Positions 18,206-48,925 of a stretch of 64,000 bases of DNA are shown one piece after another; positions within the stretch are counted from its first letter, which is position 1, and every line of letters begins with the position of its first letter. Below the pieces are notes generated by a model. That model worked only from the letters and a program-made list of their open reading frames with translations, was not told the DNA's origin and made no database searches. Origin of the DNA: Acidobacteriota bacterium (GTDB lineage Bacteria; Acidobacteriota; Vicinamibacteria; Fen-336). Location: positions 801 to 64,800 of the forward strand of contig JAJDNV010000090.1 in assembly GCA_022340545.1 (NCBI GenBank), given 5' to 3'. The position numbers and the translations under genes were made by a program.

Positions 18206-18395
18206 TCACCCGCGTGTCCCTTCCCGTGAGGACACGCGGGTGTCCGAGGCCTGTCTCAAGGCTTTTCCTGGCCTGTCGGAGGCGACGCTGGCGCGTCGCG
18301 GCGTCCACTCGGGGTCGACGCTCGTCTCGCAAGCTCGACTTCGCGTCCCCTGAGCCCCCTCCGTGGGGAGGGATAGGGTGGGGGGTCGGTGAATG
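18206..18395 (+). repeat. Structured intergenic repeat, long form, copy 1 of 4
   Basis: Shares with the copies at 39278 and 48805 a 5' hairpin module (cccgcgtgtccc..ggacacgcggg), GCCTnTCTCAAG, an internal ~120-bp hairpin-rich module (GCGACGCtggcGCGTCGC etc.), and a 3' core CCCTCCGTGGGGAGGGATAGGGTGGGGGGTC. Confidence 0.8.
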
Positions 18396-18726
18396 ATGAC
18401 GAGACCCACGCGTCCACGATGGAGCCGGCCCACAAGGCGACGATGGCGAGGGTGATCCACAGGAAGAATTCGGCGTTGTCGCGATGAATCTCGCGGGCCA
18501 GGCGGAAGGGGAGAAGGGGATCGATCTGGGCCGGATCAGTGGGCAGCCGGGCGAGCGTCTCCGCGGCGACCCGGCGAATGAGGGCCACAACCGCGACCAG
18601 GCTTCCGGTGGCGAAGGCGAGGCCGCGAACGGGGTGGCCGCTCATCAGCTGGCCGAGCCCCGGGAACACGAGACCCGACAGCAGCACGGACCGCCACGGG
18701 CGGCGGGGATTCGGGCGGGGCTCCAC
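18256..18726 (-). CDS. Small membrane protein (FPGLGQLMSG motif) whose C-terminal ~45 aa are encoded by repeat copy 1
   Basis: Candidate GTG at 18726 or ATG at 18645. The TM-rich core is ...WRSVLLSGLVFPGLGQLMSGHPVRGLAFATGSLVAVVALI...FFLWITLAIVALWAGSIV. The tail FTDPPPYPSPRRGLRGREVELARRAS... is the same peptide produced by reverse translation of repeat copy 3. Confidence 0.45.
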   Translation of the reverse strand: MEPRPNPRRPWRSVLLSGLVFPGLGQLMSGHPVRGLAFATGSLVAVVALIRRVAAETLARLPTDPAQIDPLLPFRLAREIHRDNAEFFLWITLAIVALWAGSIVDAWVSSSFTDPPPYPSPRRGLRGREVELARRASTPSGRRDAPASPPTGQEKP

Positions 18727-18810
18727 CGGGCTCACCGCCACGCCTCGTCCTTCCGTGCCGTGATATCCCGCACTCGCTCCCGCGTGCTCCGGACCGTATG
18801 ATGCGCTTCC

Positions 18811-19689
18811 GTGTCCACGGGGACTATAGACCGCGCGTCCCGGCCGTACCAGGACGTCCCACCGGCGGAGGCGGAGAGGCTGCTGGCTGGAGGGGCGGTG
18901 GCGCTCGACGTGCGGTCGGCGCGGGAGCACGAGGAGGCCGGGCACATCCCCGGCTCCCTCCTCCTGCCGCTGGCGTTTCTGGCTTCCGCTCCCGCCGTTC
19001 TTCCTGACGGCGGGCGGCCGGTGGTGTTGTGCTGCTCGGACGGGGTCCGCTCGCATCGTGCGGCTCGGCGTCTGGCCGAGGCCGGCGTCGAGAATCTCTT
19101 CGTCATCACCGGGGGAATGGAGGGGTGGACCGGACCGGTCGAGACCGGTCCGTCACCGATCTCCGGTCCCTCTTCGTGGCTGGTCGCCAATACGTCGCTC
19201 GTCCCTCCCGGTGCGCGGACGCTCGACGTGGCCTGCGGGCGAGGACGCCACGCCCTTCTGCTCGCCAGCGCCGGCTACATGGTGCGGGCGGTCGACCGGG
19301 ACGCGGCCCGCGTGGAGCAGCTCGCCGCCCTCGCCCGCCGGCTCCGTCTCCCGCTGGACGCCGAGGTCGTGGACCTCGAGAAGGGAGACGTCGATCTCGG
19401 AGACGGAGAGTGGGGGCTGGTGCTCGTCTTCCGCTACCTTCATCGACCGCTCTTTCCGGCGCTCGTCCGGGCGCTGCGCCCCGGGGGAGTCCTTCTCTGT
19501 GAGACGTTCACGAGGGGGCAGGAGCCGCAGCGGTCTCCGTCGAACCCCGTGTTCCTCCTCGAGCCGGGTGAACTGCCGGAGCTGGTGGCGCCCCTCGAGG
19601 TGGTCCGACAGCGGGAAGGGGAGTACGACGGGCGACGTGTGGCCGCGGTGGCTGCTCGCAAGCCGGCCCATCTTCCGCCCCGTCCCTGA
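18811..19689 (+). CDS. Rhodanese-domain / class I SAM-dependent methyltransferase fusion protein
   Basis: N-terminal rhodanese fold with catalytic-Cys loop (VVLCCSDGVRSHRAAR). C-terminal half LDVACGRGRHALLLASAGYMVRAVDRD is a glycine-rich SAM-binding motif I, followed by a TehB-like MTase fold. Confidence 0.7.
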   Translation: MSTGTIDRASRPYQDVPPAEAERLLAGGAVALDVRSAREHEEAGHIPGSLLLPLAFLASAPAVLPDGGRPVVLCCSDGVRSHRAARRLAEAGVENLFVITGGMEGWTGPVETGPSPISGPSSWLVANTSLVPPGARTLDVACGRGRHALLLASAGYMVRAVDRDAARVEQLAALARRLRLPLDAEVVDLEKGDVDLGDGEWGLVLVFRYLHRPLFPALVRALRPGGVLLCETFTRGQEPQRSPSNPVFLLEPGELPELVAPLEVVRQREGEYDGRRVAAVAARKPAHLPPRP

Positions 19690-19699
19690 CCGCCGAGCC

Positions 19700-20914
19700 T
19701 CAGCCGGTGTCGGCGACACGCCCGCGCGCCGCGCGCACGCCGTCGCGCAGCAGCTCGCCGAGCCAGGCGGCAGACACCACGAGCGTCACACCGACCCCCA
19801 GGACCCAGAGCCGCCCCGCCCCGACTGCGGCCGGCCCTTCCAGGGGCTGGGGCAGGAGGACGCCCGGCGCGAGGAAGAGATAGAAGCCGACGAGTCCCGC
19901 GGTGGCCCCCGCCGCGTGCGCGGCAAGCATCCGGCCCGGCCACAGCACGCCGAACGGCACGACCCAGAGGAGATACTGGGCGCTGAGCGAGCCGTAGAGA
20001 ACGTGGAAGGCCAGAAACGTGACGAGGCAGGCCCGCGCCGGGGAAAGGGCGAGCCAACCTCGGCGCGTCGCGACGGCGAGCCCGACCCAGGACACGAGGA
20101 AGAGCATCCTCGAAACGACCGAGGCAACGGGCCAGAAGCGGGCCTCGCTTCGCGCCAGATCGCCGCTCCCGAGCCAGGAGAGGCCCCGCACGAGCCCGGT
20201 CCAGCCGAAGTCGGCGATCCCGGCGTAGGCGAACAGCTCGCGCCGAAGAGCGGTGAGATCCGCGATCGCGAATGGCAAGAGGACGAGGGCCACCGGGGTC
20301 AGGGCGAGAAACGCGTAGCGCAAGGCCCGTCGCCAGGACGCTTCTCCCGCGAAGGCGAGGAACGGGAGGACCAGCACCGGGAAGGACTTCGTCCCGATCG
20401 CGGCGGCCAGCGACAACGCGGAGAGGTCGCGCCGTCCGCGGGCGAGGGCGGCGAGCGCGAGCAGGACCAGCAGGAGGGCAATCGCGTCGAACTGTCCGTG
20501 GGCGCCGGTGATGAGCACGCTCACCGGGTGGGCGGCGTAGATCCAGGCCGCCGCCGGCGGGGCGCGTCCGGCGCGTCCGGCCACGACGAGCGCGGCCACG
20601 ATGAGCAGATCGGCGAGCAGGGCCGGCAGCTTGACGTTGACGGGGAAGGTGCCCACGCCGCGCCGGGATAGCCACTCCGCCCCCGCCTCGGCAAGGGACC
20701 AGAGGGGCGGGTACGGATACAGGCGAGTCGTCTCGTACGGGTTCCAGGAGACGTCGAGTAGGTGGCGGCCCACGCGCTGGTACCGCTCGACATCGGCCAC
20801 GACGCGGTCCAGGACGAGGACCGGGGCCAGACGAAGCGCGAGGGCCAGCAGAACGGGGCCGGCGAGCGCCCGGCTCAACGGCGCGCCCTCGCTTTCGCGC
20901 GGCGTCCCCTCAAC
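19700..20914 (-). CDS. Polytopic membrane protein, putative GT-C-type glycosyltransferase (DUF2029/GT87-like)
   Basis: About 400 aa with more than 10 TM helices and the YPYPPLWSL motif in the first loop. Start is uncertain: TTG at 20879 overlaps the CHAT stop, and GTG at 20914 is the alternative. The N-terminal 130 aa of the track ORF are low-complexity and antisense to the CHAT gene. Confidence 0.5.
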   Translation of the reverse strand, partial: VEGTPRESEGAPLSRALAGPVLLALALRLAPVLVLDRVVADVERYQRVGRHLLDVSWNPYETTRLYPYPPLWSLAEAGAEWLSRRGVGTFPVNVKLPALLADLLIVAALVVAGRAGRAPPAAAWIYAAHPVSVLITGAHGQFDAIALLLVLLALAALARGRRDLSALSLAAAIGTKSFPVLVLPFLAFAGEASWRRALRYAFLALTPVALVLLPFAIADLTALRRELFAYAGIADFGWTGLVRGLSWLGSGDLARSEARFWPVASVVSRMLFLVSWVGLAVATRRGWLALSPARACLVTFLAFHVLYGSLSAQYLLWVVPFGVLWPGRMLAAHAAGATAGLVGFYLFLAPGVLLPQPLEGPAAVGAGRLWVLGVGVTLVVSAAWLGELLRDGVRAARGRVADTG

Positions 20915-22086
20915 GGCGGCCGCAGCGTCGCACCCGGGTCGCGGGCGAAGAGCACCGGCACCGCCCAGTCGAGGGCCGCGGTGCCCATCGAGTGCGCGAG
21001 GGCCACCCGGGCCTCGCGGGCGGCATCCCCCAACCCGCGTCCGAGGGCGAGGGCGGCGTAGAGCTCGCGCGCGAACGTGGTGGCCGCGGTGTCGAGGACC
21101 GCGTATTGGTTGGCCACCACCGCCGGGACCCCGGCCGCGACGAGGGCGGGGGCCATCCCCCGGTTGAAATCCACGCGCCCCCCTCGTCCGCTCTCGCAGG
21201 CGTTGAGGAAGACGAGGTCGGTGCCTCGTCGCCCGACGATCTGCCGAAAGGCCGCTGCGTCCACCGCCCTGGGTCGTCCCCTCCCATCCTCGAGGAAGAG
21301 GCATCCCTCGCGGGCGTCATCGTCGTAACTCCCGTGTCCGATGTAGTGAAGCACGTCGACCGCCTGGTCGCTCAGACGGCGGTGGAGGGCCTCGGGGGTC
21401 GCCCGGGCCACCACGCTGACCGAGGCGAGCCCGGCGTCGACGAGCGGCCGGAAACCCCGCCGCACGAGCGCGGCCTCCTCCCGGGCCGCGACCGGGGCCG
21501 CCCCCTCCGGCTCGGCGGTGGCGACGAGGATCCGAAGCCGCTCGCGTCGTCGGGAGCGGACCTCGGCGGGGACGGCGGTGAAGACGTTGCGCACGAAGTT
21601 GACGTCCGACGTGGCGAGGTGCGACCGGCGCACTGGATCGTAGGCGAGCTCCCACGGCTTGTCCGCCACCCAGTCGATCATCGAGGTGAACACGAGGTCG
21701 AGAACGCCGTCCGGCTGGAGCGAGCGGGCGACGTCGTAGAGCCGGCGGACGTCCCCGGGGAAGAGGAGCTCGAACAGGTCCCGCCCCCACGCGCGCAGCT
21801 CGCGCCCGCGGGGGAGCGTCCGGCCCCGCCCCCGGCCCTCGAGCACGGCGAGCGTCCGCTCATGCGCGCGGATGATCCTCTGCCACCTCGCCCCGGCCTC
21901 GCCACCCCGACGCGGGAACGGCGCGACGGCCCGAGCGTTGCGGAACGAAGCGAGGAGTGTCGCACTCTCGGCGGCCGGGTCGGAGGAGAGGACGAAGAGC
22001 TCGAGAACGTCGCCAGGCCCGGCGTCGGACGGGGGACGGGCGGAGGGTCGGGAGCGAGGAGACGAGGCGGCGCGGCGCGTGCTCAT
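20875..22086 (-). CDS. CHAT domain (caspase-like Cys protease) protein with an uncharacterised ~190 aa N-terminal region
   Basis: The C-terminal half has the His-Cys dyad context VLHYIGHGSYDDDAREGCLFLEDG and DLVFLNACESGRG, typical of the CHAT/caspase fold. Confidence 0.75.
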   Translation of the reverse strand: MSTRRAASSPRSRPSARPPSDAGPGDVLELFVLSSDPAAESATLLASFRNARAVAPFPRRGGEAGARWQRIIRAHERTLAVLEGRGRGRTLPRGRELRAWGRDLFELLFPGDVRRLYDVARSLQPDGVLDLVFTSMIDWVADKPWELAYDPVRRSHLATSDVNFVRNVFTAVPAEVRSRRRERLRILVATAEPEGAAPVAAREEAALVRRGFRPLVDAGLASVSVVARATPEALHRRLSDQAVDVLHYIGHGSYDDDAREGCLFLEDGRGRPRAVDAAAFRQIVGRRGTDLVFLNACESGRGGRVDFNRGMAPALVAAGVPAVVANQYAVLDTAATTFARELYAALALGRGLGDAAREARVALAHSMGTAALDWAVPVLFARDPGATLRPPLRGRRAKARARR

Positions 22087-22107
22087 GGCCCGATCTTCAC
22101 CGCACCA

Positions 22108-22124
22108 GGGTCCCCGGGGGGACC
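22108..22124 (-). terminator. GC hairpin (GGGTCCCCGGGGGGACC) just downstream of the DUF349 gene; possible terminator separating it from the CHAT operon
   Basis: 6-bp stem with a 4-nt loop, seen directly. No U-tract follows, but that is common in GC-rich genomes. Confidence 0.3.
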
Positions 22125-22144
22125 GCCCGCAAGCCCCAGGCGCC

Positions 22145-24838
22145 TCAGCCGCGCTTCCGGGACGGGCGTCGCGCCCCCGATCGGGTCCGCTCCGGTCGCG
22201 GCCTCAGCTCGAAGAACCTCTGGCAGGCACGGTTGAAGCGCTCGGCGAGGCCGCGGCCGTCCGCGCCCGGCATCGGGCCGAGGCGTCGCCATCCGGACTG
22301 CGCCGCCTCGACCTCGCTCGTGGCGGAGTGCCACCGGGCCTCCGCGGCCTCACGCCCGCCGATGGTGTTGGCGGCTAGGGCGTCGCGGAGCCGGGCCGCC
22401 AGCTCCTCGGTGCTGCCGATGGTGGCCGATCCGCCTTCCGGGGCGAGCTCCCCGAGCAGGTTCTCCACCCGGGCGATCAGCTTCTCCGCCTTCCGCCGGC
22501 TCGCCTCGGGGTCGAGCTCCGTGCCGGCGAAAGCCTGGGGATAGAGCTCCACGAGCCGGTCCCGCACCCGGGAAAATCGCTCGGCGAACGGGGTCATCAT
22601 GTCGCGAGGGAGCTCGCCGGCTTGACGCCACGCCGTCTGCGCCGTCTGGACCCGGGCCACCAGATCCTCCGGCGGAGACCCTTCGCTGCCTTCGGGGGGA
22701 AGGAGGGCTTCCAGCTCGGAGCAGATCCCCCCCCGCGTCTCCTGGACGGCCTGCAGGGCGAGGGCGTCGCGGTGCTTGTAGCGATCGAAGAAATGATCGC
22801 AGGCCTTGCGGAAGCGCTTCCACACCGCCTCCGAGCGGCTCTTCTTGACCGACCCGATCTTGCGCCATTCCGCTTGCAGTCCCTTGAGCTCGGAGGCGGT
22901 GGTCTCCCAGTCGGTCGACTCCATCATCGCCTCGGCGCGCTCGCAGAGGGCCTCTTTCTTCTCGAGGTTTGCCGCCCACTCCTTGCCGCGCTTTTCCCGC
23001 TGCTCATGCCAGCGCGTGAAGAAGCGGTCGCAGGGCTGTCGAAAGCGGTCCCAGATTCTGCGCGAGTGGGCTCGCGGCACGGGACCGACCTGCTTCCACT
23101 CGGCCTGCAGGCGGCGCAGCTCGTCCGCGGTCTTCACCCATTCCGTCGAATCGGCGAGAGACTCGGCCTTCTCGCAGAGAGATTCCTTCTTCCGGAGGTT
23201 CTCCTCCAGCTCCTCTGCCTGCTTGGCGAAGAACGCGTCGACCCGGCCCTTGACCACGTCGCGCGCGGCCTTGAACCGCGTCCAGAGCTCCTCGGCGTTT
23301 TCCTTCGGTGCCTCCTTGGCCTGCTTCCAGCGTGCGTCGAGATCCTTCAGCTTGCGTGCGGCCCGGGCCGTGTCCCGCTCTTCGATGAGGGCCTCGGCGC
23401 GCGCGCAGAGGTCCTCCTGCACAGACTCGTTGGCCCAGCGTTTCCACTCTGCATCTTCGCGCAGCTGCTGCAGCACGGGGTAGAGGGCCTTGCGGGCGGC
23501 CTCGAGCCGGGCCAGGGTCTGCTCGCGATCGAGACGCGAGGGAAAGTGTCCGGGGCGGTCGAGGGCGGAGCGGATCTCTCGCGACACGTGGTCGACGTCC
23601 CGCAGGCCGGGGTTCTCCCTGGCGAGCAGCGACTCGGCTCTTTCCACGAGGGTGGTGAGGTGTGCGAGGTTCTCACGATCCCTTCGCTCGCGCTCCTCGC
23701 GGGCGGCACGTTGGCGCCCGTGCATTCGCGCCGCCGCGTCATCGAAGCGGGTGCGGAGGTCCGGCTGGTCCTCCGAAGCCGCGAGCTCGTTCCATCGCTG
23801 CTCCACCTCCCCCCAGGCGGAGCGGTCCTCGCCGTCGGCGAGCGCCTCCGCTTTCGCCACGAGCGCGGCGAGCTCGTCACGGCGGGCGAGGCCGGTCAAG
23901 TAGGCCTGGTGGCGACGCTCGGCGGCGGCGATCGCCGCCTCGAAGCGCGCCGCGGCGCGCGCGGCTTCCTCGCCGGTGTTGGGCTCGAGTGCGTCCCACG
24001 CCGCTCGCGCCTGCTCGAGGGCGGTCGTGATGGCCTCCCCTTCCGCTCCCTCGACCGACTCGCAGAGGCGGGCTCGTGCCTCGAGGGCTACCCCTCGCTC
24101 CTTCGCCTTCTCTTCTTGTTCCGCTCGTGCCCGCTCGTAGACCTCTCGCTCCCTCTCGTTCTGCTCGATGGTGGTGGACGCCGCCGTGGGGCGGTTGGTC
24201 GCCGGCTTCTCCTGGTCGAGCCGGGCCCGCGCCCGGCGGGCGGCGGCGCCGAGTCGCGACTTCTCGGCCACGGTCTCGATCGCGCCGTAATCCTCCAGCC
24301 GGTCCACCGCCGCCACCGCGATCGCCTTCTGGTCGGATTTGAGGGCGAAGGACAGGAGGGTGGGCTCGTCGTCGATTCGGCCCAGGGCCAGAAGCCGGGT
24401 CGCCCCGTCGTCGGCTTCCCGGACGACGCTGGCGAGGGCCCGGGGGTCGTTCAATGCCTCGACCGCGGCCCCGCGCACCGCGGGCAGAACCGCCGAACGC
24501 GCCACTGACGAGAGGTGTCGAGGCTCGCTCAGGGCGGCGAGCGCGGCCCGGGTCTCCTCCTCCTCGGTGGCGTGAACGACCAGGTGCACCAGGCGTGTCG
24601 TGGCCTCCTCGCGGACGCCATCGTCGTCGTCGGTGCGGGCGAGGTCGATGAGGACCTCGGCGTCAGTCAGTTTCTTCGCCGCCGCGCGGCGGACGCGCGG
24701 CTCGTCATCCTCCCGGGCGATGGCGAGCAGGGTCTCGCGCTCGGAAGACGGGAGACGCAGGACGGCCGCGGCCCGGACCGCGGGATCGGGATCCTGCCAC
24801 TCGGGCTTGTTGAGCAGACGGTCGATGATGCCCTTCAC
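22145..24838 (-). CDS. DUF349 repeat protein with N-terminal HEAT/PBS-lyase-like repeats
   Basis: 897 aa. Multiple ~75-aa repeats carry the W..R...F...FF.RW signature (EELWTRFKAARDVVKGRVDAFFAKQ; RIWDRFRQPCDRFFTRW; AVWKRFRKACDHFFDRY), characteristic of DUF349. Confidence 0.75.
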   Translation of the reverse strand: MKGIIDRLLNKPEWQDPDPAVRAAAVLRLPSSERETLLAIAREDDEPRVRRAAAKKLTDAEVLIDLARTDDDDGVREEATTRLVHLVVHATEEEETRAALAALSEPRHLSSVARSAVLPAVRGAAVEALNDPRALASVVREADDGATRLLALGRIDDEPTLLSFALKSDQKAIAVAAVDRLEDYGAIETVAEKSRLGAAARRARARLDQEKPATNRPTAASTTIEQNEREREVYERARAEQEEKAKERGVALEARARLCESVEGAEGEAITTALEQARAAWDALEPNTGEEAARAAARFEAAIAAAERRHQAYLTGLARRDELAALVAKAEALADGEDRSAWGEVEQRWNELAASEDQPDLRTRFDDAAARMHGRQRAAREERERRDRENLAHLTTLVERAESLLARENPGLRDVDHVSREIRSALDRPGHFPSRLDREQTLARLEAARKALYPVLQQLREDAEWKRWANESVQEDLCARAEALIEERDTARAARKLKDLDARWKQAKEAPKENAEELWTRFKAARDVVKGRVDAFFAKQAEELEENLRKKESLCEKAESLADSTEWVKTADELRRLQAEWKQVGPVPRAHSRRIWDRFRQPCDRFFTRWHEQREKRGKEWAANLEKKEALCERAEAMMESTDWETTASELKGLQAEWRKIGSVKKSRSEAVWKRFRKACDHFFDRYKHRDALALQAVQETRGGICSELEALLPPEGSEGSPPEDLVARVQTAQTAWRQAGELPRDMMTPFAERFSRVRDRLVELYPQAFAGTELDPEASRRKAEKLIARVENLLGELAPEGGSATIGSTEELAARLRDALAANTIGGREAAEARWHSATSEVEAAQSGWRRLGPMPGADGRGLAERFNRACQRFFELRPRPERTRSGARRPSRKRG

Positions 24839-24914
24839 GGTCGTCTCCTGGATGCACGGCCCCGAAACCCCGACTATACCCCAACCGGCCAGGAGCCCGT
24901 CGGCGCGGACAGCT

Positions 24915-26186: not shown

Positions 26187-26266
26187 CTGAGGACAACCTC
26201 GCAGGACAGCGTATTATGCCCCGTCCATCCAATCGGGTGGACGATGGACCAGCGCTGACGACCGGG

Positions 26267-27388: not shown

Positions 27389-27400
27389 GGAACGGCCCGA

Positions 27401-27796: not shown

Positions 27797-27837
27797 ACTA
27801 CATCTCCGAAAGGGGGGGCGGTGTACCATGGCTCTCC

Positions 27838-31946: not shown

Positions 31947-31974
31947 GGCTGGACCGGTTGGATTCGGGGTGGGT

Positions 31975-32050
31975 TGGTGGGCGCTGCAGGATTCGAACCT
32001 GCGACTTCCACCGTGTGAAGGTGGCACTCTACCGCTGAGTTAAGCGCCCG
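31975..32050 (-). tRNA. tRNA-Val (anticodon CAC), CCA encoded
   Basis: Reverse strand reads GGGCGCUUAACUCAGCGGUAGAGUGCCACCUUCACACGGUGGAAGUCGCAGGUUCGAAUCCUGCAGCGCCCACCA. This gives a 7-bp acceptor stem, anticodon loop UUCACAC with anticodon CAC, and T-loop GGUUCGAAUCC. Confidence 0.8.
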
Positions 32051-37212: not shown

Positions 37213-37304
37213 TGTAGACCGGTTGGGTCGGTGCGGACGGGTATTTCGCGTGCCCCACCCCGGATCGGGCAAACCGGAGACGAATTGGCGGGCGTCCGTG
37301 GCCT

Positions 37305-37360
37305 ATCTCAAGCATTTTCCTCCCCCTACGTGGGGAGGGATAGGGTGGGGGGTCATTGAA
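37305..37360 (+). repeat. Structured intergenic repeat, short form, copy 2 of 4
   Basis: GCCTATCTCAAGCATTTTCCTCCCCCTACGTGGGGAGGGATAGGGTGGGGGGTC. Lacks the 5' hairpin module and the ~120-bp internal module. Confidence 0.75.
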
Positions 37361-37369
37361 TAGCCAGGT

Positions 37370-37813
37370 CTACCGCACGACCTCGAGCCGCACCTTGCCC
37401 GTGCCGGGCCCAATGAGGCCGATGGCCCTGGCGGTGCCGCGGGAGACGTCGATCACTCTCCCTTTGTAGGCGGGGAAGCGGTCGTTGATGGTCACGACCG
37501 TGCTCTTCCCGGTCGAAAGCAACGTCACCTTCACCCGGGTGCCGAACGCCCAGTAGGGGTGGGCGGCGGTCATGGCGTCCTGGTTGTACCTCTCCCCGCT
37601 CGCCGTCGTCTTGCCGTGGAAGCCCGGCCCATACCAGGAGGCGATCCCCTCCGCAATCGTGCCCACCGCCGGGGCCTCAGGAGGCGGGAACTTGTAGGCC
37701 TTCGGGTCGGGATGGCGCGAGCACGCCCAGAACGTGCCCAGCATTGCCAGCACTGCGAGGGCGGCGGAGATATGGAGGCGCCGGACCGAAGCGGTCGGGG
37801 TCTGCCGTTGCAT
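37370..37813 (-). CDS. rlpA: RlpA-like double-psi beta-barrel (septal ring lytic transglycosylase RlpA family) lipoprotein
   Basis: From ATG 37813 (MQRQTPTASVRRLHISAALAVLAMLGTFWACS: lipobox-like). ASWYGPGFHGKTTASGERYN...HPYWAFGTRVKVT matches the DPBB/RlpA signature. The ATG overlaps the pyk stop (TGATG). Confidence 0.75.
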   Translation of the reverse strand: MQRQTPTASVRRLHISAALAVLAMLGTFWACSRHPDPKAYKFPPPEAPAVGTIAEGIASWYGPGFHGKTTASGERYNQDAMTAAHPYWAFGTRVKVTLLSTGKSTVVTINDRFPAYKGRVIDVSRGTARAIGLIGPGTGKVRLEVVR

Positions 37814-39231: not shown

Positions 39232-39277
39232 GGGTCCCGCCGAGTATACGGCAGTGCGGCTGGCCATCAGGCCGAGA

Positions 39278-39485
39278 CTCGCCCGCGTGTCCCTTCCTTG
39301 GGGACCCGCGGGTGGACGGGGCCTATCTCAAGACGCCTCGCGGCCTGTGGGAGGCGACGCTGGCGCGTCGCAGCGTACACTCGGGGTCGACGCTCGTCTC
39401 GCCAGCTCGACTTCGCGTCCCCCGAGCCCCCTCCGTGGGGAGGGATAGGGTGGGGGGTCGATGAACGATTGTGGCCGCTGAGCGT
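39278..39485 (+). repeat. Structured intergenic repeat, long form, copy 3 of 4; lies between the divergent pyk and nuoA
   Basis: Near-identical module order to copy 1. It shares its 3' tail (GATGAaCGATTGTGGCCGC) with copy 4. Confidence 0.8.
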
Positions 39486-39641
39486 AGAACTCTCTCTCCT
39501 CACGGGGCTTGCGTGTCCTCGGGGCGTTTGACACCCCGCGAGGCCGGAAGCTATATTCCGGCGTCGATCACCATCTGCCGTCGCCGCCGTTCTTCAATCG
39601 TTAGACCAGGACCCTTCGCCCGACCGCCAGACGCTCCGATC

Positions 39642-39992
39642 ATGCCCAGCTACCTTCCGATCGTGATCCTGGGGGCGATCGCCCTGGGCTTCGGTGTCTT
39701 CGTGCTGGCGGCCTCCCACATCATCGGGCGCCCTCGCCCCGACGCCCGGAAGCTGTCCACCTACGAGTGCGGCATGCCGCCGGTCGGGACCGCCCGCGAG
39801 CGGTTTCCGATCAAGTTCTACCTCGTGTGCATGCTCTTCATCCTCTTCGACGTGGAGACCGCGTTCTTCTATCCGTGGGCGCTCGTCATGGACACGCTGG
39901 GGATCTACGGTCTGATGGCCATGGGGACATTCTTCCTCGTCCTGGCCGTGGGCTTCGTCTACGAGTGGAAGGTCGGAGCGATGGACTGGTAG
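39642..39992 (+). CDS. nuoA: NADH-quinone oxidoreductase subunit A
   Basis: 116 aa, three TM helices; ...STYECGMPPVG...FDVETAFFYPWA matches the NuoA/ND3 signature. Confidence 0.85.
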   Translation: MPSYLPIVILGAIALGFGVFVLAASHIIGRPRPDARKLSTYECGMPPVGTARERFPIKFYLVCMLFILFDVETAFFYPWALVMDTLGIYGLMAMGTFFLVLAVGFVYEWKVGAMDW

Positions 39993-39996
39993 CGGC

Positions 39997-41817: not shown

Positions 41818-42857
41818 CGCCCCTCGCCGAGGAGCTGCTCGTCACGTTCGTCAAGATCGTGATCGTCGTGGGGGCGCTCCTGGGTGGTTTCTCCGTCATG
41901 ACCTGGGTGGAGCGGCGGAGCCTCGCCTTCATGCAATACCGCCTCGGCCCCAACCGGACCGGGCCTTTCGGGATCCTCCAGCCCATCGCCGACGGCATCA
42001 AGCTGTTCTTCAAGGAAGAGGTGATGCCGGTCGCTGCGAACAAGTGGACCTTCCTCGCCGCCCCGGTGGTCGCGGTGGCGACGGCGCTCTTGGCGACGGC
42101 GGTGATCCCCTACGGGCCGCCCTTCGAGGCGTTCGGAAGGACCCTGCAGATCCAGATTGCCGACATCGAGGTGGGGCTCCTCTTCATCTTTGCCGTCACC
42201 GCCCTCGGCGTCTACGGGGTCGTCCTGGCCGGCTGGGCGGCCAACAACAAGTACTCGCTCCTCGGCGGGCTCCGCTCCTCGGCCCAGATGTTCTCGTACG
42301 AGCTGGCGCTGGGCTTCTCGTGGGTCACCCTGATCCTTGCCGCGCGCTCCTTCCGGATCAATGACATCGTGGACACCCAGGCGGGCGGATTCTGGCACTG
42401 GAACGTCGTCGTGCACTTCCCGGCCTTCATCGTCTACTTCCTGGCCGCCACCGCCGAGGTGGCCCGGATCCCGTTCGACCTCCCGGAGGGTGAGAGCGAG
42501 ATCGTGGCCGGATTCCACACCGAGTATGCGTCCATGCGGTTCGCCCTCATCCAGATGGCCGAGTACATCAACATGATCACGGTGACCGTTCTCCTCGCGA
42601 ACCTCTTCTTCGGGGGCTGGCACTCCGGCGTCCCGGGGATGCCGGAGAGCCTGGGTGGCTTCCCGCTGGGCTTCGTGTGGTGGGGCCTCAAGGTGGCCTT
42701 CTTCCTCTTCGTCTTCATCTGGCTTCGGGGGACGCTGCCGCGCTTCCGCTACGATCAGCTCATGCAGTTCGGCTGGAAGGTCCTGATCCCGGTGGCCGCG
42801 GTCTGGGTCATGACCTTCGCGGTCCTGTGGGTCGTCGTCGGTGGTGGTCCGCGATGA
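41814..42857 (+). CDS. nuoH: NADH-quinone oxidoreductase subunit H
   Basis: 347 aa polytopic with the ND1 signature (...AEYINM..., RYDQLM). GTG start overlaps the nuoEF stop (GTGA). Confidence 0.9.
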   Translation: MTPLAEELLVTFVKIVIVVGALLGGFSVMTWVERRSLAFMQYRLGPNRTGPFGILQPIADGIKLFFKEEVMPVAANKWTFLAAPVVAVATALLATAVIPYGPPFEAFGRTLQIQIADIEVGLLFIFAVTALGVYGVVLAGWAANNKYSLLGGLRSSAQMFSYELALGFSWVTLILAARSFRINDIVDTQAGGFWHWNVVVHFPAFIVYFLAATAEVARIPFDLPEGESEIVAGFHTEYASMRFALIQMAEYINMITVTVLLANLFFGGWHSGVPGMPESLGGFPLGFVWWGLKVAFFLFVFIWLRGTLPRFRYDQLMQFGWKVLIPVAAVWVMTFAVLWVVVGGGPR

Positions 42858-43351
42858 TGATCGACGCCGTCCTCTTCTACGTCTTCGCCGCCATCGCGGT
42901 CGCGTCGGCCGTGGTCGTCATTGGCCAGCGCAACCCCATGTACTCGGCCTTTGCCCTGGTGGTGACGCTGTGCTCGGTCGCCGTCATCTTCGGCCTGCTC
43001 GGCTCCCCGTTCATCGCCGTTCTGCAGGTGATCGTGTACGCGGGCGCGATCATGGTCCTCTTCCTGTTCGTGCTGATGCTCCTCAACGTGAAGCGCGAGA
43101 AGGACTCGCCGAGCAGGGGCCAGCGCACCCTCAGCGGGGTTGCCCTCGCCCTGGTGACGGTGCTGGTTCTCCAGGCGGGGGCCGTCCTGCTCCGCTCGAG
43201 GCCGACCCCGGCCCCGGACTACGACGCCTCGACCTTCGAGATGGCGAAGATCCTCTTCTCGCCGCACTTCCTCTACGCCTTCGAGGCGACCTCCATCCTC
43301 ATCCTCGCCGCCCTGGTGGGAGCGGTGGTGCTGGCGAAGAAGGAGCTCTAG
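42854..43351 (+). CDS. nuoJ: NADH-quinone oxidoreductase subunit J
   Basis: 165 aa ND6-like from ATG 42854, overlapping the nuoH stop as ATGA. No nuoI lies between nuoH and nuoJ. Confidence 0.85.
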
Positions 43352-43355
43352 CGCG

Positions 43356-43667
43356 ATGGAGAACCCCGCCTTCGTGCACCACGCCGTCGTGCTGAGCCTC
43401 ATCCTCTTCGCCCTCGGCACCCTCGGTGTCTTCCTGCGCCGCAACGTCATCACCGTGCTCATGTGCGTCGAGCTGATGCTGAACGGCGTCAACCTGGCCT
43501 TCGTGGCCTTCAGCCGGGCCCAGGGTACGCTCGACGGCCAGGTCCTAGTGTTCTTCGTGATGGTGGTGGCGGCGGCGGAGGCCGCAGTCGGGCTGGCCAT
43601 CGTCATCGCCCTCCACCGGCACCGGGACACGCTGGACCTGGACGCCTTCAACCTCATGAAGGGATAG
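43356..43667 (+). CDS. nuoK: NADH-quinone oxidoreductase subunit K
   Basis: 103 aa, ND4L signature ([17 protein letters not shown]). Confidence 0.85.
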
Positions 43668-43670
43668 GTC

Positions 43671-45584
43671 GTGCTCGACGATCCACTGCTCAAGATCCTG
43701 CCCTTCGCCATCCTGCTCCTGCCCCTCGGCGGGTTCGTCGTTCTCGCCCTCTTTGGCGACTGGATCAAGCGGGACAAGGAGGAGACGGGCGCCGCCTGGC
43801 TCGCCTGCGCCACCGTAATCATCTCCTTCGGCCTCGCGGCCTGGACGACGGTGCGGCTCTACGGCCTGGTGGCGGGCGAGGGCGGGCTCCGGTTCTTCCA
43901 GCCGTACCTCGGTTATGAGTGGATGGAGGCGGGCGGGTTCAGCGTGCCCTACAGCCTCCTGGTGGATCCCCTCTCCTGCGTGATGATGCTGGTGGTCACC
44001 GGGGTGGGCTCTCTCATCCACGTCTACTCGGTGGGCTACATGGCCCACGACGAGGACCGGGTCCCCTACTTCTCGTATCTGAACCTCTTCACCTTCTTCA
44101 TGCTGCTGCTCGTGCTGGGCGGCAACCTCCCGCTGATGTTCGTCGGCTGGGAGGGGGTGGGGCTGTGCTCCTACCTCCTCATCGGGTTCTGGTACCGCAA
44201 GGACAGCGCCGCCGCCGCCGGCCTCAAGGCGTTCATCGTCAACCGGATCGGCGACGCGGGGCTCATCCTGGGCATGATCTTCGTCTTCCACGCCTTCGGG
44301 AGCCTCGACCTGGTGGACATCGCCGACAACGCGGGGTCGCTGGCCCCCGAGGGCCTGTGGGAGTTCGGGCCGGCGACGATCGCCGCCCTCCTTCTCTTCG
44401 TCGGCGCCACCGGGAAGAGCGCCCAGATCCCCCTCCACGTGTGGCTGCCTGATGCCATGGAGGGCCCCACGCCGGTCTCCGCCCTCATCCACGCCGCCAC
44501 CATGGTGACCGCGGGCGTCTACATGGTGGCGCGCCTCGGGCCGCTCTACCACGTCTCGGAGACCGCGATGATGACGGTCGCGGTCGTCGGCGCGGTGACG
44601 GCCCTCATGGCCGCGACCATCGCCCTCGTCCAGACCGACATCAAGCGGGTGCTGGCCTACTCCACGGTGAGCCAGCTCGGCTACATGTTCCTGGCCTGTG
44701 GGGTGGGGGCGTTCGGGGTCGGCATCTTCCACCTCTACACCCACGCCTTCTTCAAGGCGCTCCTCTTCCTCGGCTCGGGCTCCGTGATCCACGCGATGTC
44801 GGGGGAGCAGGACATGCAGAGGATGGGCGGCCTCCGAAAGAGAATCCCCTGGACCTTCTGGACGTTCCTCGCGGGAACGCTCGCAATCGCCGGGATCCCC
44901 TTCTTCGCCGGCTTCTTCAGCAAGGACGAGATCCTCGCCGCGGCCCTGGGCCACCCCGTGCTCCTCGGGATCGGTCTCTTCACCGCGCTCCTGACCGCCT
45001 TCTATATGGCCCGTCTGCTCTTCCTGACGTTCTTCGGGGATTTCCGCGGAGGGGAGGAGGCCGAGCACCACCTGCACGAGTCGCCGTGGGTCATGCTTGT
45101 GCCGCTCATCCTGCTCGCCATCGGCTCCGCCGCGGGGGGCTTCGTCAAGATCCCGGAGATCGTCCAGCCCGTCTTCCGCCTGGGCCACGGGCATATCCCC
45201 CACGTGGCGTGGCTCCCGGTAGCGGCCACGCTCAGCGCGATCGCCGGCATCCTCGGCGCCTACTATCTCTACCTGGCGATGCCCGAGCTGCGGGCGGGGC
45301 TCGCCTCCACGTTCCGGCCCGCCCTCCGCGTCTTCGCCGCCAAGTACTACTGGGATGACGTCTATAACGGTTTCGTCCGGCGGGTGGTCGTGAGGGGCAG
45401 TGACCTGGTGCTCTGGCAGGGCGTCGACAACCGCGTGGTCGACGGTGCGGTCAACCGGACCGCCACCATCACCGGGGCGCTCGCCGAGATGCTTCGCCCC
45501 CTGCAGACCGGCTTCGTGCGGCAATACGCGCTACTCATCCTCGCCGGGGCGGTCGCGCTCCTCGGGTACCTCCTCTGGCCATGA
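43671..45584 (+). CDS. nuoL: NADH-quinone oxidoreductase subunit L
   Basis: 637 aa ND5-like antiporter subunit, GTG start. Confidence 0.9.
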   Translation: MLDDPLLKILPFAILLLPLGGFVVLALFGDWIKRDKEETGAAWLACATVIISFGLAAWTTVRLYGLVAGEGGLRFFQPYLGYEWMEAGGFSVPYSLLVDPLSCVMMLVVTGVGSLIHVYSVGYMAHDEDRVPYFSYLNLFTFFMLLLVLGGNLPLMFVGWEGVGLCSYLLIGFWYRKDSAAAAGLKAFIVNRIGDAGLILGMIFVFHAFGSLDLVDIADNAGSLAPEGLWEFGPATIAALLLFVGATGKSAQIPLHVWLPDAMEGPTPVSALIHAATMVTAGVYMVARLGPLYHVSETAMMTVAVVGAVTALMAATIALVQTDIKRVLAYSTVSQLGYMFLACGVGAFGVGIFHLYTHAFFKALLFLGSGSVIHAMSGEQDMQRMGGLRKRIPWTFWTFLAGTLAIAGIPFFAGFFSKDEILAAALGHPVLLGIGLFTALLTAFYMARLLFLTFFGDFRGGEEAEHHLHESPWVMLVPLILLAIGSAAGGFVKIPEIVQPVFRLGHGHIPHVAWLPVAATLSAIAGILGAYYLYLAMPELRAGLASTFRPALRVFAAKYYWDDVYNGFVRRVVVRGSDLVLWQGVDNRVVDGAVNRTATITGALAEMLRPLQTGFVRQYALLILAGAVALLGYLLWP

Positions 45585-47140
45585 GCGTCCTGAACCAGCA
45601 CCTGCTCAGCGTCCTCATCTTCCTGCCCGTGGTGGGTGCGGTCGCCATCGCCCTCAGCCGGCGCGAGTCGGAGACGCTCCAGAAGATCCTCGGCCTCGTC
45701 TTCTCGACCGCGGGCTTCGCCCTGTCCCTCCTCCTGGTGCGGGGCTTCCAGGACGTGGCCGGCATGCAGTTCGTGGAGAGGGGGCGGTGGATCCCGGCCT
45801 GGGGAATCTCCTACGCCGTCGGCGTGGACGGCCTGTCTCTGTGGCTGGTGATCCTGACCACGTTCCTCACCCCGCTCGCCCTCTTGGGCTCCTGGAGCTC
45901 CATCGACCGGCGGGTCAAGGAGTTCGTCGTCTTCATGCTGCTGCTCGAGGCGGGGATGATCGGGGTCTTCGTGGCCCTCGACCTCTTCCTCTTCTACGTC
46001 TTCTGGGAGGCGATGCTGATCCCGATGTACTTCCTCATCGGGATCTGGGGGCACGAGAGGCGCATCTACGCCGCGGTGAAGTTCTTCCTCTTCACCTTCG
46101 CCGGCAGCGTGCTCATGCTGGTCGCGTTCCTGGTCCTATACCGGACCGCTGGCGTGGGCAGCTTCGATCTCGCGGTGCTCGTCGCTGCGCCCGTCGACCC
46201 CGCCCTGCAGGTCTGGCTGTTCCTCGCCTGCGCGCTGGCCTTCGCCATCAAGGTTCCGATGTTCCCGTTCCACACGTGGCTCCCCGACGCCCACGTCGAG
46301 GCCCCCACCGCGGGCTCGGTGATCCTGGCCGGGGTGCTGCTCAAGATGGGGGGCTACGGCTTCCTGCGGATCGCCATCCCGCTCTTTCCCGAGGCGGCGG
46401 TGCGTTTCGCCCCCCTGATCGGCGTCCTGGCCGTCATCGGGATCATCTACGGGGCCCTCGTCGCGCTGGTGCAGCCCGACCTCAAGAAGCTCGTGGCGTA
46501 CTCGTCGGTCGCCCACCTCGGCTTCGTGATGCTCGGCATCGCCGCCTTCACGACCACCGGTCTGGTTGGATCCGTCTACCAGATGCTGAACCATGGTATC
46601 TCGACCGGGGCGCTCTTCTTCCTGGTGGGGATGCTCTACGACCGACGCCACACCCGGCTCATCTCGGAGTTCGGGGGCCTCAAGGCGATCATCCCCTGGT
46701 ACACCGCGGTCTTTCTCATGATCAGCCTCTCCTCGATCGCCATGCCCGGTTTCAACGGCTTCGTGGGCGAGTTCCTGATCCTCGTGGGCTCCTGGCCCTT
46801 CAGCCCGACGCTGGTGGTGCTTGCCTCCCTGGGCGTCATCCTGGCCGCCGGCTACATCCTCTGGATGGTGAAGCGCGTGTTCTACGGTGAGCCCACCAAC
46901 CCGAAGAACGAGAAGCTCCCCGACCTCAGTCTCCGGGAGGCGGCCGTCCTCGTGCCCCTCGTCGCCCTCGCCTTCTTCATGGGCGTGGCGAGCCCCCTCT
47001 TCACGAAGCGCATCGAGCCCGCCGCGGACGCCCTCGTGGTGCAGGTGCAGGAGAGGACCCGGCCCATCGCCGCCGCGAGCCTGGGCCCCGTCGCACCGCC
47101 CCGGGCGTCCCGCGCCGACCCCGCGGAGGCCCAGCGGTGA
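45581..47140 (+). CDS. nuoM: NADH-quinone oxidoreductase subunit M
   Basis: 519 aa ND4-like; overlaps nuoL by 4 nt. Confidence 0.9.
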   Translation: MSVLNQHLLSVLIFLPVVGAVAIALSRRESETLQKILGLVFSTAGFALSLLLVRGFQDVAGMQFVERGRWIPAWGISYAVGVDGLSLWLVILTTFLTPLALLGSWSSIDRRVKEFVVFMLLLEAGMIGVFVALDLFLFYVFWEAMLIPMYFLIGIWGHERRIYAAVKFFLFTFAGSVLMLVAFLVLYRTAGVGSFDLAVLVAAPVDPALQVWLFLACALAFAIKVPMFPFHTWLPDAHVEAPTAGSVILAGVLLKMGGYGFLRIAIPLFPEAAVRFAPLIGVLAVIGIIYGALVALVQPDLKKLVAYSSVAHLGFVMLGIAAFTTTGLVGSVYQMLNHGISTGALFFLVGMLYDRRHTRLISEFGGLKAIIPWYTAVFLMISLSSIAMPGFNGFVGEFLILVGSWPFSPTLVVLASLGVILAAGYILWMVKRVFYGEPTNPKNEKLPDLSLREAAVLVPLVALAFFMGVASPLFTKRIEPAADALVVQVQERTRPIAAASLGPVAPPRASRADPAEAQR

Positions 47141-48588
47141 GCGGCGAGCTCGATCTCCGTCCCCTCGTCCCGGCGATCATCGTCGGCGTCACCGGCCTCG
47201 TGGTCCTCCTCGCCCAGGCGTTCACGCCGAAGGACAGGCGGGCTCCCTCGGCGCCGCTCAGCCTCACCGGCCTCCTCGCCGCCCTCGCTGCGGTGTGGCT
47301 CCTGGCCAGCGGGGGCGGCCGCGGGGCGGTCCTGGCGAACGCGGTGAGCGCAGACGCGTACTCCCTCTTCTTCCAGGCACTCCTCCTCGGGATCGCCGCG
47401 GTGGCGGTGCTGCTGTCGCCGTCCTACTTGCGCGCGAACGGGCTCGATCGCGGCGAGTACTACGCGCTGCTGCTCTTCTCGGTGGTGGGGATGCTCGGCC
47501 TGGTGTCGAGCCTCGAGCTCGTGTCGATGTTCGTGGCCCTCGAGATCATGTCCATCGCCCTGTACGGGATGGCGGGGTTGTACCGCAGCCGGATGGAGAG
47601 CCAGGAGGCCGCGCTCAAGTACTTCGTCACCGGGGCGTTCTCTTCTGCCTTCTTCCTGTATGGCGTCGCGCTTCTCTACGGCGTGAGCGGCAGCACGTCG
47701 CTCGACCGCCTGGAGTGGGCGGTGAGCACGCTCACGACGGATTCGGCCGCCCTCGCCCTCCTCGGCGCGGGGATGCTCCTCGTTGGCTTCGGCTTCAAGA
47801 TCGCGAGCGTTCCCTTCCACATGTGGGCGCCCGACGTCTACGAGGGAGCCCCCACCCCCGCGACCGCCCTCATGTCGGCCGGGGTCAAGGCCGCGGCCTT
47901 CGGCGCGCTGCTGCGGGTGTTCGGCTCTGCGCTCCACGCGCTCGCCGGCGAGTGGCAGCCGCTGGTGGCCTCGTTGGCGGTCATCACCATGGTCGTCGGG
48001 AACCTCGCAGCGCTGGCCCAGGGCAACCTGAAGCGCATGCTCGCCTTCTCGTCGGTCGCCCATGCCGGCTACGTGCTCACCGCGCTCGTGGCCAGCCCCG
48101 GCCAGGCCGGGGAGGCGGTGCTGTTCTACCTGGTCGTCTACGGGGCCGTGAACCTCGGCGCCTTCGGGACGATCGCCGCCCTCTCCCGGGAGGGACGCGA
48201 GCCGCTCTCCCTGGGCGACGTGGCCGGAATGGCCGAGCGCCGACCCGCGCTGGCCGCCGCCCTCGCCGTGTTCCTCGTGTCGCTCACCGGCATCCCCGTG
48301 ACCGCGGGGTTCGTGGGCAAGTTCTACCTGTTCAATGCCGCCGTGACCGCGGGCTGGGTGGGGCTCGCCCTCGTGGGCGTGCTGATGAGCGTCGTCTCCG
48401 CCTACTACTACCTGCGGGTCGTGGTGGCGATGTACATGCGCGACCCGCTGGGTGAGGACACCTGGGCGCGCGTGTCGCCATCGGCCACGGTGGCTCTCGC
48501 CCTCTCCGCCGTGATCACGCTCGTCCTCGGGATCTACCCGGCGCCGGTCCTGACCCTGGCCCGCATCGCCGCCCGGTCGCTCCTGTAG
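47137..48588 (+). CDS. nuoN: NADH-quinone oxidoreductase subunit N
   Basis: 483 aa ND2-like; GTG start overlaps nuoM by 4 nt. Confidence 0.9.
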   Translation: MSGELDLRPLVPAIIVGVTGLVVLLAQAFTPKDRRAPSAPLSLTGLLAALAAVWLLASGGGRGAVLANAVSADAYSLFFQALLLGIAAVAVLLSPSYLRANGLDRGEYYALLLFSVVGMLGLVSSLELVSMFVALEIMSIALYGMAGLYRSRMESQEAALKYFVTGAFSSAFFLYGVALLYGVSGSTSLDRLEWAVSTLTTDSAALALLGAGMLLVGFGFKIASVPFHMWAPDVYEGAPTPATALMSAGVKAAAFGALLRVFGSALHALAGEWQPLVASLAVITMVVGNLAALAQGNLKRMLAFSSVAHAGYVLTALVASPGQAGEAVLFYLVVYGAVNLGAFGTIAALSREGREPLSLGDVAGMAERRPALAAALAVFLVSLTGIPVTAGFVGKFYLFNAAVTAGWVGLALVGVLMSVVSAYYYLRVVVAMYMRDPLGEDTWARVSPSATVALALSAVITLVLGIYPAPVLTLARIAARSLL

Positions 48589-48804
48589 GCGGGCTGGTCC
48601 GCGGAGGGGCGCTCCAGAGGTCCGCTACGCGGGGACGCTCGGTTGGGCGTTGGCCTCTTCAACCGGAAGGTGCGCCCGCCCTCGCTCGAATCGCCCCCCA
48701 CGCTTCACGGACATTTCATTGAGGGAGGGGGGCTCCACGCCCCGCTTCGCGGACCCCTGGCGCGCCGGGGCGACGAAAAGGTTGGGCTGGCCACCAGGCC
48801 TAGG

Positions 48805-48925
48805 CTCGCCCGCGTGTCCCCTCCCTGAGGACACGCGGGAGTACGAGGCCTATCTCAAGCATTCCCCTCCCCCTACGTGGGGAGGGATAGGGTGGGGGGT
48901 CGATGACCGATTGTGGCCGCCGAGC
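48805..48925 (+). repeat. Structured intergenic repeat, intermediate form, copy 4 of 4; downstream of nuoN
   Basis: Has the 5' hairpin module plus GCCTATCTCAAG plus the short 3' core (CCCCTCCCCCTACGTGGGGAGGGATAGGGTGGGGGGTCGATGACCGATTGTGGCCGC). Lacks the internal module. Confidence 0.8.

Follow-up and report, generated by a model that had tools for sequence, protein, structure and literature searches.

The closest described relatives of the repeats reported here are the triplex motifs (TM) of proteobacteria, formerly known as BoxC or PIT elements, which are G/C-rich intrastrand triplexes of the class II purine-motif kind (Holder et al. 2015, PMC4666352). TM motifs are always intergenic, occur thousands of times in proteobacteria and are associated with variable spacers (PMC4666352). 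Taken as an isolated single strand of DNA, the motif folds into a stable triplex, which was not detected in vivo; a competing G-quadruplex has also been raised for the Escherichia coli motif, TM_ECO, and Acidobacteria are unmentioned in that study (PMC4666352). The E. coli motif was moreover found to be without promoter or terminator activity (PMC4666352, citing Maher). Two further systems are relevant for comparison: class 3 TnpA-Y1 ‘REPtron-like’ systems are present in Acidobacteria and Planctomycetes, with about 600 atypical hairpins in Solibacter usitatus (Quentin et al. 2018, PMC6006769), and for mycobacterial interspersed repetitive units (MIRUs) insertion at start codons, overlapping by -4, has been reported (PMC12548453, PMC3184786; summarising Supply 1997). 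Here we analysed a 64,000-nt stretch of DNA (the window; G+C content 70%) from an Acidobacteriota bacterium (assembly GCA_022340545.1, contig JAJDNV010000090.1, positions 801 to 64,800), which contains four related intergenic repeats. These four loci are probably copies of a non-autonomous mosaic intergenic repeat, with an organisation like that of repetitive extragenic palindromes (REPs) and bacterial interspersed mosaic elements (BIMEs), in an uncultured, Vicinamibacteria-like soil acidobacterium. They would represent structured mobile or recombinogenic DNA with a triplex-motif core that may spread via single-stranded DNA. The acidobacterial mosaic variant is new, whereas the BoxC/PIT/TM triplex-motif class and the BIME-like organisation were already known.

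A sequence-only reading of the window had listed four structured repeats in the same orientation, and all four were recovered at those places, on the + strand and with exact cores. The 22-nt core of module D, GGGAGGGATAGGGTGGGGGGTC, starts at 18366, 37333, 39438 and 48880, and gave 0 matches in 100 shuffles. A linker, B (GCCTATCTCAAG), lies 5' of every core, at 18249 (with one mismatch), 37301, 39321 and 48848, and a search of the 64-kb window with an nhmmer profile of the element found zero additional copies, hidden or degenerate. The mosaic is built of the core plus a 5' module, hairpin A, linker B, an optional nested module C (~95 nt) and a GGGGGGTCGATGA tail (Table 1). Several details of the earlier description had to be amended. 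The element does not begin at hairpin A, as had been proposed; its 5' end lies ~22 nt further upstream, where a conserved module, GTGCGGCTGGCCAnCAGGCC, is found at 39254 and 48783 and is degenerate in copy 1. Hairpin A itself, described as an 11-bp stem, extends over 15 bp and has one mismatch in copy 3. The composition A+B+C+D holds for copy 1; copy 3 carries tail E in addition (A+B+C+D+E), and copy 2, listed as B+D only, is truncated at its 5' end, hairpin A being represented by its 3' arm. Among the four window copies, the hairpins of module C are restricted to copies 1 and 3. In this long form module C is nested within the C-rich arm of the D core, splitting the arm, and the core differs from that of the short form by a single base (CTCCGT in the long form, CTACGT in the short form).

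Table 1 Coordinates of the four repeat copies, their modules and the additional spacer DNA in the window (Y, pyrimidine arm; R, purine arm; RH, reverse-Hoogsteen arm)
Feature	Position (nt)	Strand	Composition or sequence
Copy 1, long form	18183..18397	+	degenerate 5' module, A, B, C, D core, degenerate tail; without E
Copy 1, hairpin A	18209-18240	+	
Copy 1, linker B	18249-18260	+	
Copy 1, module C	18263-18360	+	
Copy 1, D core	18355-18387	+	
Copy 1, tail		+	degenerate GGTGAATGA
Copy 2, short form truncated at 5' end	37288..37361	+	A 3' arm, B, D core, tail TCATTGAAT
Copy 2, A 3' arm	37288-37299	+	ggcgggcgtccgt
Copy 2, linker B	37301-37312	+	
Copy 2, D core	Y 37319-37326; R 37332-37339; RH 37343-37352	+	ATA between R and RH
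Copy 3, complete long form	39254..39478	+	5' module, A, B, C, D, E
Copy 3, 5' module	39254-39273	+	GTGCGGCTGGCCATCAGGCC
Copy 3, hairpin A	39282-39312	+	
Copy 3, linker B	39321-39332	+	
Copy 3, module C	39339-39432	+	
Copy 3, D core	Y 39427-39434; R 39437-39444; RH 39448-39457	+	ATA between R and RH
Copy 3, tail E	39460-39478	+	GATGAACGATTGTGGCCGC
Copy 4, complete short form	48783..48920	+	5' module, A, B, D, E
Copy 4, 5' module	48785-48800	+	
Copy 4, hairpin A	48809-48839	+	
Copy 4, linker B	48848-48859	+	
Copy 4, D core	Y 48865-48872; R 48879-48886; RH 48890-48899	+	Y CCCTCCCC; loop CTACGT; R GGGGAGGG; ATA; RH GGGTGGGG
Copy 4, tail E	48902-48920	+	
Extra spacer DNA upstream of copy 4	48589..48782		~195 nt, absent in relatives; not an nhmmer copy

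The element had been said to match nothing recognisable, which is wrong for module D, since it has the BoxC/PIT/TM architecture (PMC4666352). The blocks of the D core are Y(8)-loop(6)-R(8)-loop(3)-RH(8), the reverse-Hoogsteen (RH) arm mirroring the purine (R) arm. Under the ITxF definition of an intrastrand triplex motif (stems of 6-15 nt, loops of 1-6 nt, one mismatch if the stem is >7; PMC4666352), the class II purine-type order of pyrimidine, purine and reverse-Hoogsteen arms with short loops is present in all four copies. Copy 4 (CCCTCCCC-CTACGT-GGGGAGGG-ATA-GGGTGGGG) has 8 triads and copy 2 likewise, with one T.G in the Y arm, and copies 1 and 3 (CCCTCC-GTGG-GGAGGG-ATA-GGGTGG) have 6 triads. 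The third arm, antiparallel to the purine arm, is a mirror repeat, as is required for G*G:C and T*A:T (or A*A:T) triads: read 3' to 5', GGGTGGGG becomes GGGGTGGG, which against GGGGAGGG gives 7 G·G and 1 T·A contacts. For co-variation of A in the R arm with T in the RH arm, the sample is dominated by the searched pattern and holds too few variants to count.

The acidobacterial core and the TM motifs share the one-strand order of C-rich arm, 3-6-nt loop, G-rich arm, 3-nt loop and mirrored G-rich arm, with T or A opposite A in the second G-rich arm. Both are strictly intergenic and multi-copy, are linked to variable spacers, and have highly conserved stems and freer loops. They differ in that the acidobacterial stems are 8 nt (GGGGAGGG) and those of TM_ECO 9 nt (GGGNGAGGG), and in that the acidobacterial core is embedded in a mosaic of 5' module, hairpin A, linker B, module C and tail. 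Furthermore, acidobacterial arrays run head-to-tail whereas TM motifs form inverted pairs, and the wider acidobacterial family is sense-biased and touches start codons, whereas TM_ECO has no strand bias or preferred distance from open reading frames (ORFs). The TM_ECO pattern (CCCTCNCCC N3-6 GGGNGAGGG N3 GGGNGAGGG) gave 0 matches in the window, the G arms here being 8 nt and without the NG insertion, and a literature search by exact core sequence returned no paper containing the core. The core is also a strong G-quadruplex (G4) candidate: its G arms constitute a canonical G4 motif, and the G4 model of ViennaRNA for RNA predicts a 3-layer quadruplex (-22.8 kcal/mol) in preference to the hairpin. 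On the G-rich strand only, the predicted folds are a hairpin, a three-layer G-quadruplex and, in single-stranded DNA, an intrastrand triplex; triplexes of the purine motif are not formed by RNA (PMC4666352).

Searches beyond the window placed the four copies in a large family. Confinement to these four copies would have told against a mobile repeat, and the opposite was found: >120 metagenome contigs and several metagenome-assembled genomes (MAGs) of Acidobacteriota/Vicinamibacteria carry family members. The 19-mer GGGGAGGGATAGGGTGGGG, scanned over one genome per species, gave at least 117 loci, and core plus tail, scanned over metagenomes, gave at least 120 soil and sediment contigs (L-numbers below designate loci outside the window). 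The 19-mer loci listed span Alpha-, Beta-, Gamma- and Deltaproteobacteria, Nitrospirota, Planctomycetota, Chloroflexota, Bacteroidota, Gastranaerophilales and Acidobacteriota, and in nearly all of them a complementary C-rich arm, CCCCTCCCC, lies 5-7 nt upstream of the 19-mer. The combination of hairpin A, GCCTATCTCA and tail GGTCGATGAA is, among the matches listed, found only in Acidobacteriota/Vicinamibacteria MAGs (L015, L022, L062, L073, L104 and others), and tail E is confined to the source lineage among aligned composites. The commonest form on the metagenome contigs is a 72-nt unit, GCGGAGCC..CAGCGTTCCCCTCCCCCTACGT-core-GGTCGATGAA, frequently with additional GGGGGGTCGATGA sub-repeats and frequently arrayed head-to-tail. 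Across the family, head-to-tail arrays are found in L015 (x3), L247 (x2), L123, L126, L176, L197, L211, L215 and L219. Module C (~85-95 nt, hairpin-rich) is an independent repeat, occurring as a C-C tandem and without D in L015 (at about 1850-2026 on the - strand and at 4065-4158). At four loci of a Proteobacteria MAG, JAHJQK01 (L064, L066, L076 and L078), we also observed an unrelated repeat family around the same triplex-type core; its flanks are conserved (…gcggcagagccgcaaccaaaagaaatcaccccctcccaaccctcccccctcgag-core-gggattgcttaa…) and its C-rich side is of sufficient length for pairing with both G arms.

Folding of the repeats was evaluated on single copies and on an alignment of 14 short-form composites of ~130 nt. 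Complete copies are more stable than shuffles (z = -3.0 to -4.2), and in copies 3 and 4 tail E pairs with the 5' module; this closing stem (GCGGCTGGCC / GGCCGC) is limited to copies 3 and 4 and L120. The consensus fold comprises an AGGCC/GGCCU stem around hairpin A, the D hairpin and a possible AUCUC/GGGGU pairing. Both-side changes were found at 4 of the 15 pairs of hairpin A, with a covariation score exceeded in 0 of 500 shuffles, and more distant copies (L137, L191, L228, L235 and L245) carry wholly different yet perfect hairpins in this position. The structure of hairpin A is therefore conserved and its sequence is not. Wobble pairs are asymmetric in the alignment (21 G.U cells versus 4 A.C cells), which designates the G-rich strand as the folding strand.

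Gain and loss of the repeats was followed by comparison with relatives. The exact pyk gene of the window is present in JGI Ga0316577-84 and ENA assemblies, and the named relatives are Acidobacteria or Vicinamibacteria MAGs. Gene order is kept in relatives whose pyk genes are 80-86% identical (85-86% in those whose orthologous spacers lack copies 3 and 4). The pyk-nuoA spacer, 410 nt with copy 3 in the window, measures 135-241 nt without an element in five relatives, between the anchors GAGTATACG and TTTGACACC. Likewise, the nuoN-selA spacer is 364 nt with copy 4 in the window and 21 or 81 nt without an element in relatives. The spacer between the DPBB and methyltransferase genes, which in the window holds the truncated copy 2, contains two full tandem elements in the orientation of copy 2 in L247, one element plus an inverted core in L245, and none in L244 and L248. 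In contigs from the same population (L238, 5850-6009; L241, 4500-4657) point changes are present in the copy 2 core (ggggagggatggggtgggagg; ATAGGG changed to ATGGGG), which shows ongoing decay of the truncated copy. Together, the filled and empty orthologous spacers and the mutated copy 2 cores show a rapid turnover, in which elements are acquired, truncated and lost within a short evolutionary time. In L246 (4823-6183) the DPBB-methyltransferase spacer consists of 1.36 kb of apparently decayed coding sequence from which the repeats are absent, a further sign of the instability of this spacer.

One of two suggestions made in the sequence-only reading, a miniature mobile or recombinogenic REP-like modular element, is supported by the many copies, the stand-alone modules, the arrays (L015, L247) and the empty orthologous spacers. 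We propose that spread may occur via a single-stranded intermediate of the G-rich strand, processed by a trans-acting enzyme for which an HUH-Y1 transposase (a RAYT or class 3 TnpA-like protein) would be the obvious candidate, and that slippage or recombination at a non-B DNA structure could contribute too. Copies would then persist where insertion does no harm, at convergent gene ends and in the spacers of divergent promoters and of operons. Those in the window would most likely be selfish or neutral DNA, with stable 3' hairpins on transcripts and local spacer instability as possible side effects.

In common with REP/BIME/REPIN sequences, the acidobacterial units are short G+C-rich hairpins of high copy number in intergenic DNA, combine a few modules in mosaics, cluster at gene ends and in operons, show compensatory stem changes and differ in presence or absence among relatives. 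Unlike them, they measure 72 to 225 nt, have a three-arm core in place of a simple palindrome, and lack a GT[AG]G or CGTC foot and head-to-head dimers; no RAYT gene flanked by them was found in the 1.66 Mb of loci searched. The class 3 TnpA-Y1 systems resemble the present case in that acidobacterial genomes can contain hundreds of HUH-Y1-associated atypical hairpin repeats; they differ in that those hairpins are described by a CnGA foot only, and no such gene was seen beside any copy. By analogy with these systems, a class 3 HUH-Y1 protein would be a plausible mobiliser of the repeats.

Several observations weigh against a mobile or recombinogenic element. A search for a mobilising enzyme by tblastn, with RayT of E. 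coli as the query over 1.66 Mb of loci that carry the family, found none: the matches (best E 0.38), a cupin and a hydrolase, were due to chance and were rejected. REP hallmarks, as defined in PMC3733652 and PMC6006769, were not found: there are no inverted dimers, and no GTAG or CGTC foot, the sequence being CTCG or TTCA 5' of hairpin A and CATT or CGAG 5' of the D hairpin, with GTAG present only within the D loop on the - strand. Target-site duplications, which together with terminal inverted repeats characterise a MITE and were suggested as a check in the earlier reading, are not visible at copies 3 and 4, which also lack a sharp boundary, the empty spacers of relatives being too diverged to define one. 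The location of four copies on one strand is not significant alone (p = 0.125), and even the E. coli motif gave no sign of a triplex in vivo (PMC4666352). Finally, the sense bias of the 72-nt unit, described below, fits an RNA-level role equally well as a replication-strand bias. GC skew was considered as a means of assigning the replication strand and was rejected, the skew of the window tracking gene orientation.

The context of the 72-nt unit, evaluated with simple GC3-based gene calls, bears on this sense bias. Between co-directional genes the unit lies in sense orientation in 35 cases and antisense in 6, or 29 versus 8 in a second count. A coding ORF begins at the ATG inside the tail (GGGGGGTCG-ATG-A-ATG), or just past an extra tail sub-repeat, in 53 of 118 unique metagenome copies. 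Of 10 downstream proteins tested, 8, with glycerate kinase, CoaX, an epimerase, EutN and Pth among them, have position 1-2 of the Pfam domain aligned to residue 1-4, so the ATG of the repeat is the real start codon. The upstream stop codon lies 0-9 nt ahead of the unit in 23 of 43 cases, ATGA is found in the 5' flank of 13 of 58 basic units (2% background), and the tail closes all three reading frames. The A+B composite lies mostly downstream of a co-oriented gene and adjoins the 3' end of an opposite gene, as do copies 1 and 4. Among metagenome loci L118-L237 (e.g. L219, L166, L204, L213, L176 and L154), we also observed that the 72-nt unit fills whole intercistronic spacers in the orientation of the genes, that its tail, GGGGGGTCGATGAATG, holds the true start codon of the downstream gene, and that ATGA is enriched on either side.

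These contexts raise the possibility, which we hold only tentatively, that the repeat acts in cis within a sense transcript. At gene ends hairpins A and D would serve as a 3' stabiliser or a terminator devoid of a U-tract, and at gene starts the repeat would be a translation-initiation cassette whose third-arm G-run, acting as the ribosome-binding site, is freed or hidden as the C-rich arm pairs with the proximal G arm or the distal G-run; alternatively, an RNA G-quadruplex would be formed by the two G arms. Besides the sense bias and the start and stop codon positions, this is favoured by the distal pairing being the minimum-free-energy fold of the minimal unit, by a G4 model 4-11 kcal/mol lower than the hairpin, by the G.U wobbles, which favour the G-rich strand, and by the sense orientation of copies 1 and 4 directly downstream of fpg and nuoN. 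However, all four window copies lie away from gene starts: a 6-codon ORF begins at the copy 3 tail ATG, and the corresponding ATG of copy 4 leads into an ORF that runs antisense to selA. Copy 2 is in antisense orientation to the genes on either side, and copy 3 lies upstream of the nuo promoter. Moreover, there is no U-tract terminator, the E. coli motif lacks promoter and terminator activity as cited above, the flanking genes are unrelated in function, and the sense bias could stem from a replication-strand insertion bias.

A more specific proposal, for which the probability is similarly low, is that the family includes a mobile, MIRU-like translation-initiation cassette. The 72-nt unit would insert between stop and start codons, often at ATGA overlaps, close three frames, supply a G-run ribosome-binding site plus ATG, and operate as a three-way switch between a proximal hairpin, a distal hairpin that hides the site and an RNA G-quadruplex. 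Like MIRUs, the unit falls within 40-100 bp, fills intercistronic spacers in the orientation of the flanking genes, forms tandem arrays (periods 71, 72 and 74), has short direct repeats (ATGA) at both ends, and overlaps the downstream start codon at its 3' end through an ATGA or TGAATG junction. It differs from them in phylum and sequence, in the lack of a single conserved small ORF and in its triplex/G4 core, and the four window copies are of the composite form and away from start codons, none of them having the start-codon position of a MIRU. We also considered whether one conserved small ORF passes through the unit in the manner of MIRUs and rejected this as a general feature: of 133 copies, 128 keep open the frame that ends at the tail TGA, usually without an ATG, and at the commonest spacing of 72 nt the upstream ATG falls in a frame stopped by the TAG of the core. 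Arrays of period 71 and 74 do chain ATGA-coupled ORFs. If such a cassette existed, unrelated acidobacterial genes, numbering from dozens to hundreds, would come under a common post-transcriptional control point, governed for example by K+, temperature or a factor binding the G4 or the C-rich strand, and the composite copies of the window would be derivatives from which the cassette role has been lost.

It appears unlikely that the repeats are functional chromosomal DNA elements, in which the core and hairpin A would be sites where, for instance, a nucleoid protein, gyrase or the replisome binds or pauses, as with E. coli BIMEs, or programmed recombination hot spots selected for genome plasticity. 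The core is nearly invariant across the family while its surroundings vary, and the spacers that bear elements are the hypervariable ones in relatives, echoing the instability reported around TM motifs (PMC4666352). Against this, the copies are irregularly spaced along the window (18.3, 37.3, 39.4 and 48.9 kb), decay is fast within one population (the L238 and L241 core mutations), and presence and absence alternate among close relatives, which is unexpected for an essential site; the instability could also be a consequence of the repeat and not its function.

Least probable is the other suggestion of the sequence-only reading, a small RNA family, here taken as independently transcribed genes: the strong, partly covarying fold, the closing stem of copies 3 and 4 and the location of all four copies on one strand would fit, but no copy is accompanied by a sigma-70-like promoter, an intrinsic terminator or any similar signal, an Rfam scan of the window at the gathering threshold gave a tRNA only, permissive scans of the window, copy 3 and eight family loci gave nothing credible, gene contexts are inconsistent, the closing stem (tail E) is lineage-confined, and copies are truncated, nested and arrayed in the manner of repeats and overlap an ORF end (copy 1) or, in relatives, border on start or stop codons.

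Bacteria carry BoxC/PIT/TM motifs in abundance, and these motifs are still without an accepted function or mode of spread. To these the acidobacterial family adds cleanly dated gains, in the form of empty orthologous sites, and a mosaic context in which the triplex motif is one module among several hairpin modules. Its basic form adds a strong orientation bias and the start codon of the next gene inside the repeat, two features through which ‘DNA parasite or RNA-level regulator?’ becomes a testable question; of all the findings, it is the coupling of the basic unit to the start codon that merits further work. On a practical level, the repeats create spurious ORF extensions, as at copy 1, and can mislead the calling of gene starts in high-GC soil MAGs.

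The surroundings of the four copies, with genes placed by codon-position G+C plus Pfam, are convergent, co-directional antisense or divergent. Copy 1 is flanked by the fpg stop codon (18180, +) and the 3' end of a - strand ORF for a small membrane protein (18256-19056). This ORF has no stop before the repeat and continues for 45 further codons inside copy 1 (…SSSFTDPPPYPSPRRGLRG…), probably either because the repeat has extended the C-terminus or as a trap for annotation. The - strand neighbours of copy 2 are a DPBB/RlpA-like gene (stop at 37370) and a methyltransferase-like gene. Copy 3 occupies the divergent spacer between the start of pyk (39231, -) and the nuo operon, beginning with nuoA (+). 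Just outside it, upstream of nuoA, a near-consensus sigma-70-type promoter (TTGACA-18-TATATT, 39528-39557, +) is kept in five relatives as TTTGACACCCCGCGAG…CTATATTCCG, and copy 3 sits between this promoter and the conserved GAGTATACG beside the pyk start.

Copy 4 is located where nuoN and selA converge, between their 3' ends at 48588 and 48953, respectively. An antisense ORF pair with identical codon phase is found here (48650-50875, +; 48953-52120, -); the + strand ORF, which spans copy 4, was rejected as spurious, having no Pfam match, and the - strand ORF has SelA in its C-terminal 460 residues. Degenerate fragments of repeat-like sequence, TTCATTGAGGGAGGGGGG and GGGGCGACGAAAAGG, the latter resembling the tail sub-repeat, occur in the additional spacer DNA upstream of copy 4, which looks like the remains of older insertions. 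Peptide coding by the repeats was also considered and rejected on sequence and GC3, since the - strand ATG in copies 2 and 4 leads to a 20-aa ORF or to an out-of-frame overlap with a real gene. A tRNA-Val gene (CAC) at 31975-32049 on the - strand is the sole Rfam or ARAGORN match in the window.

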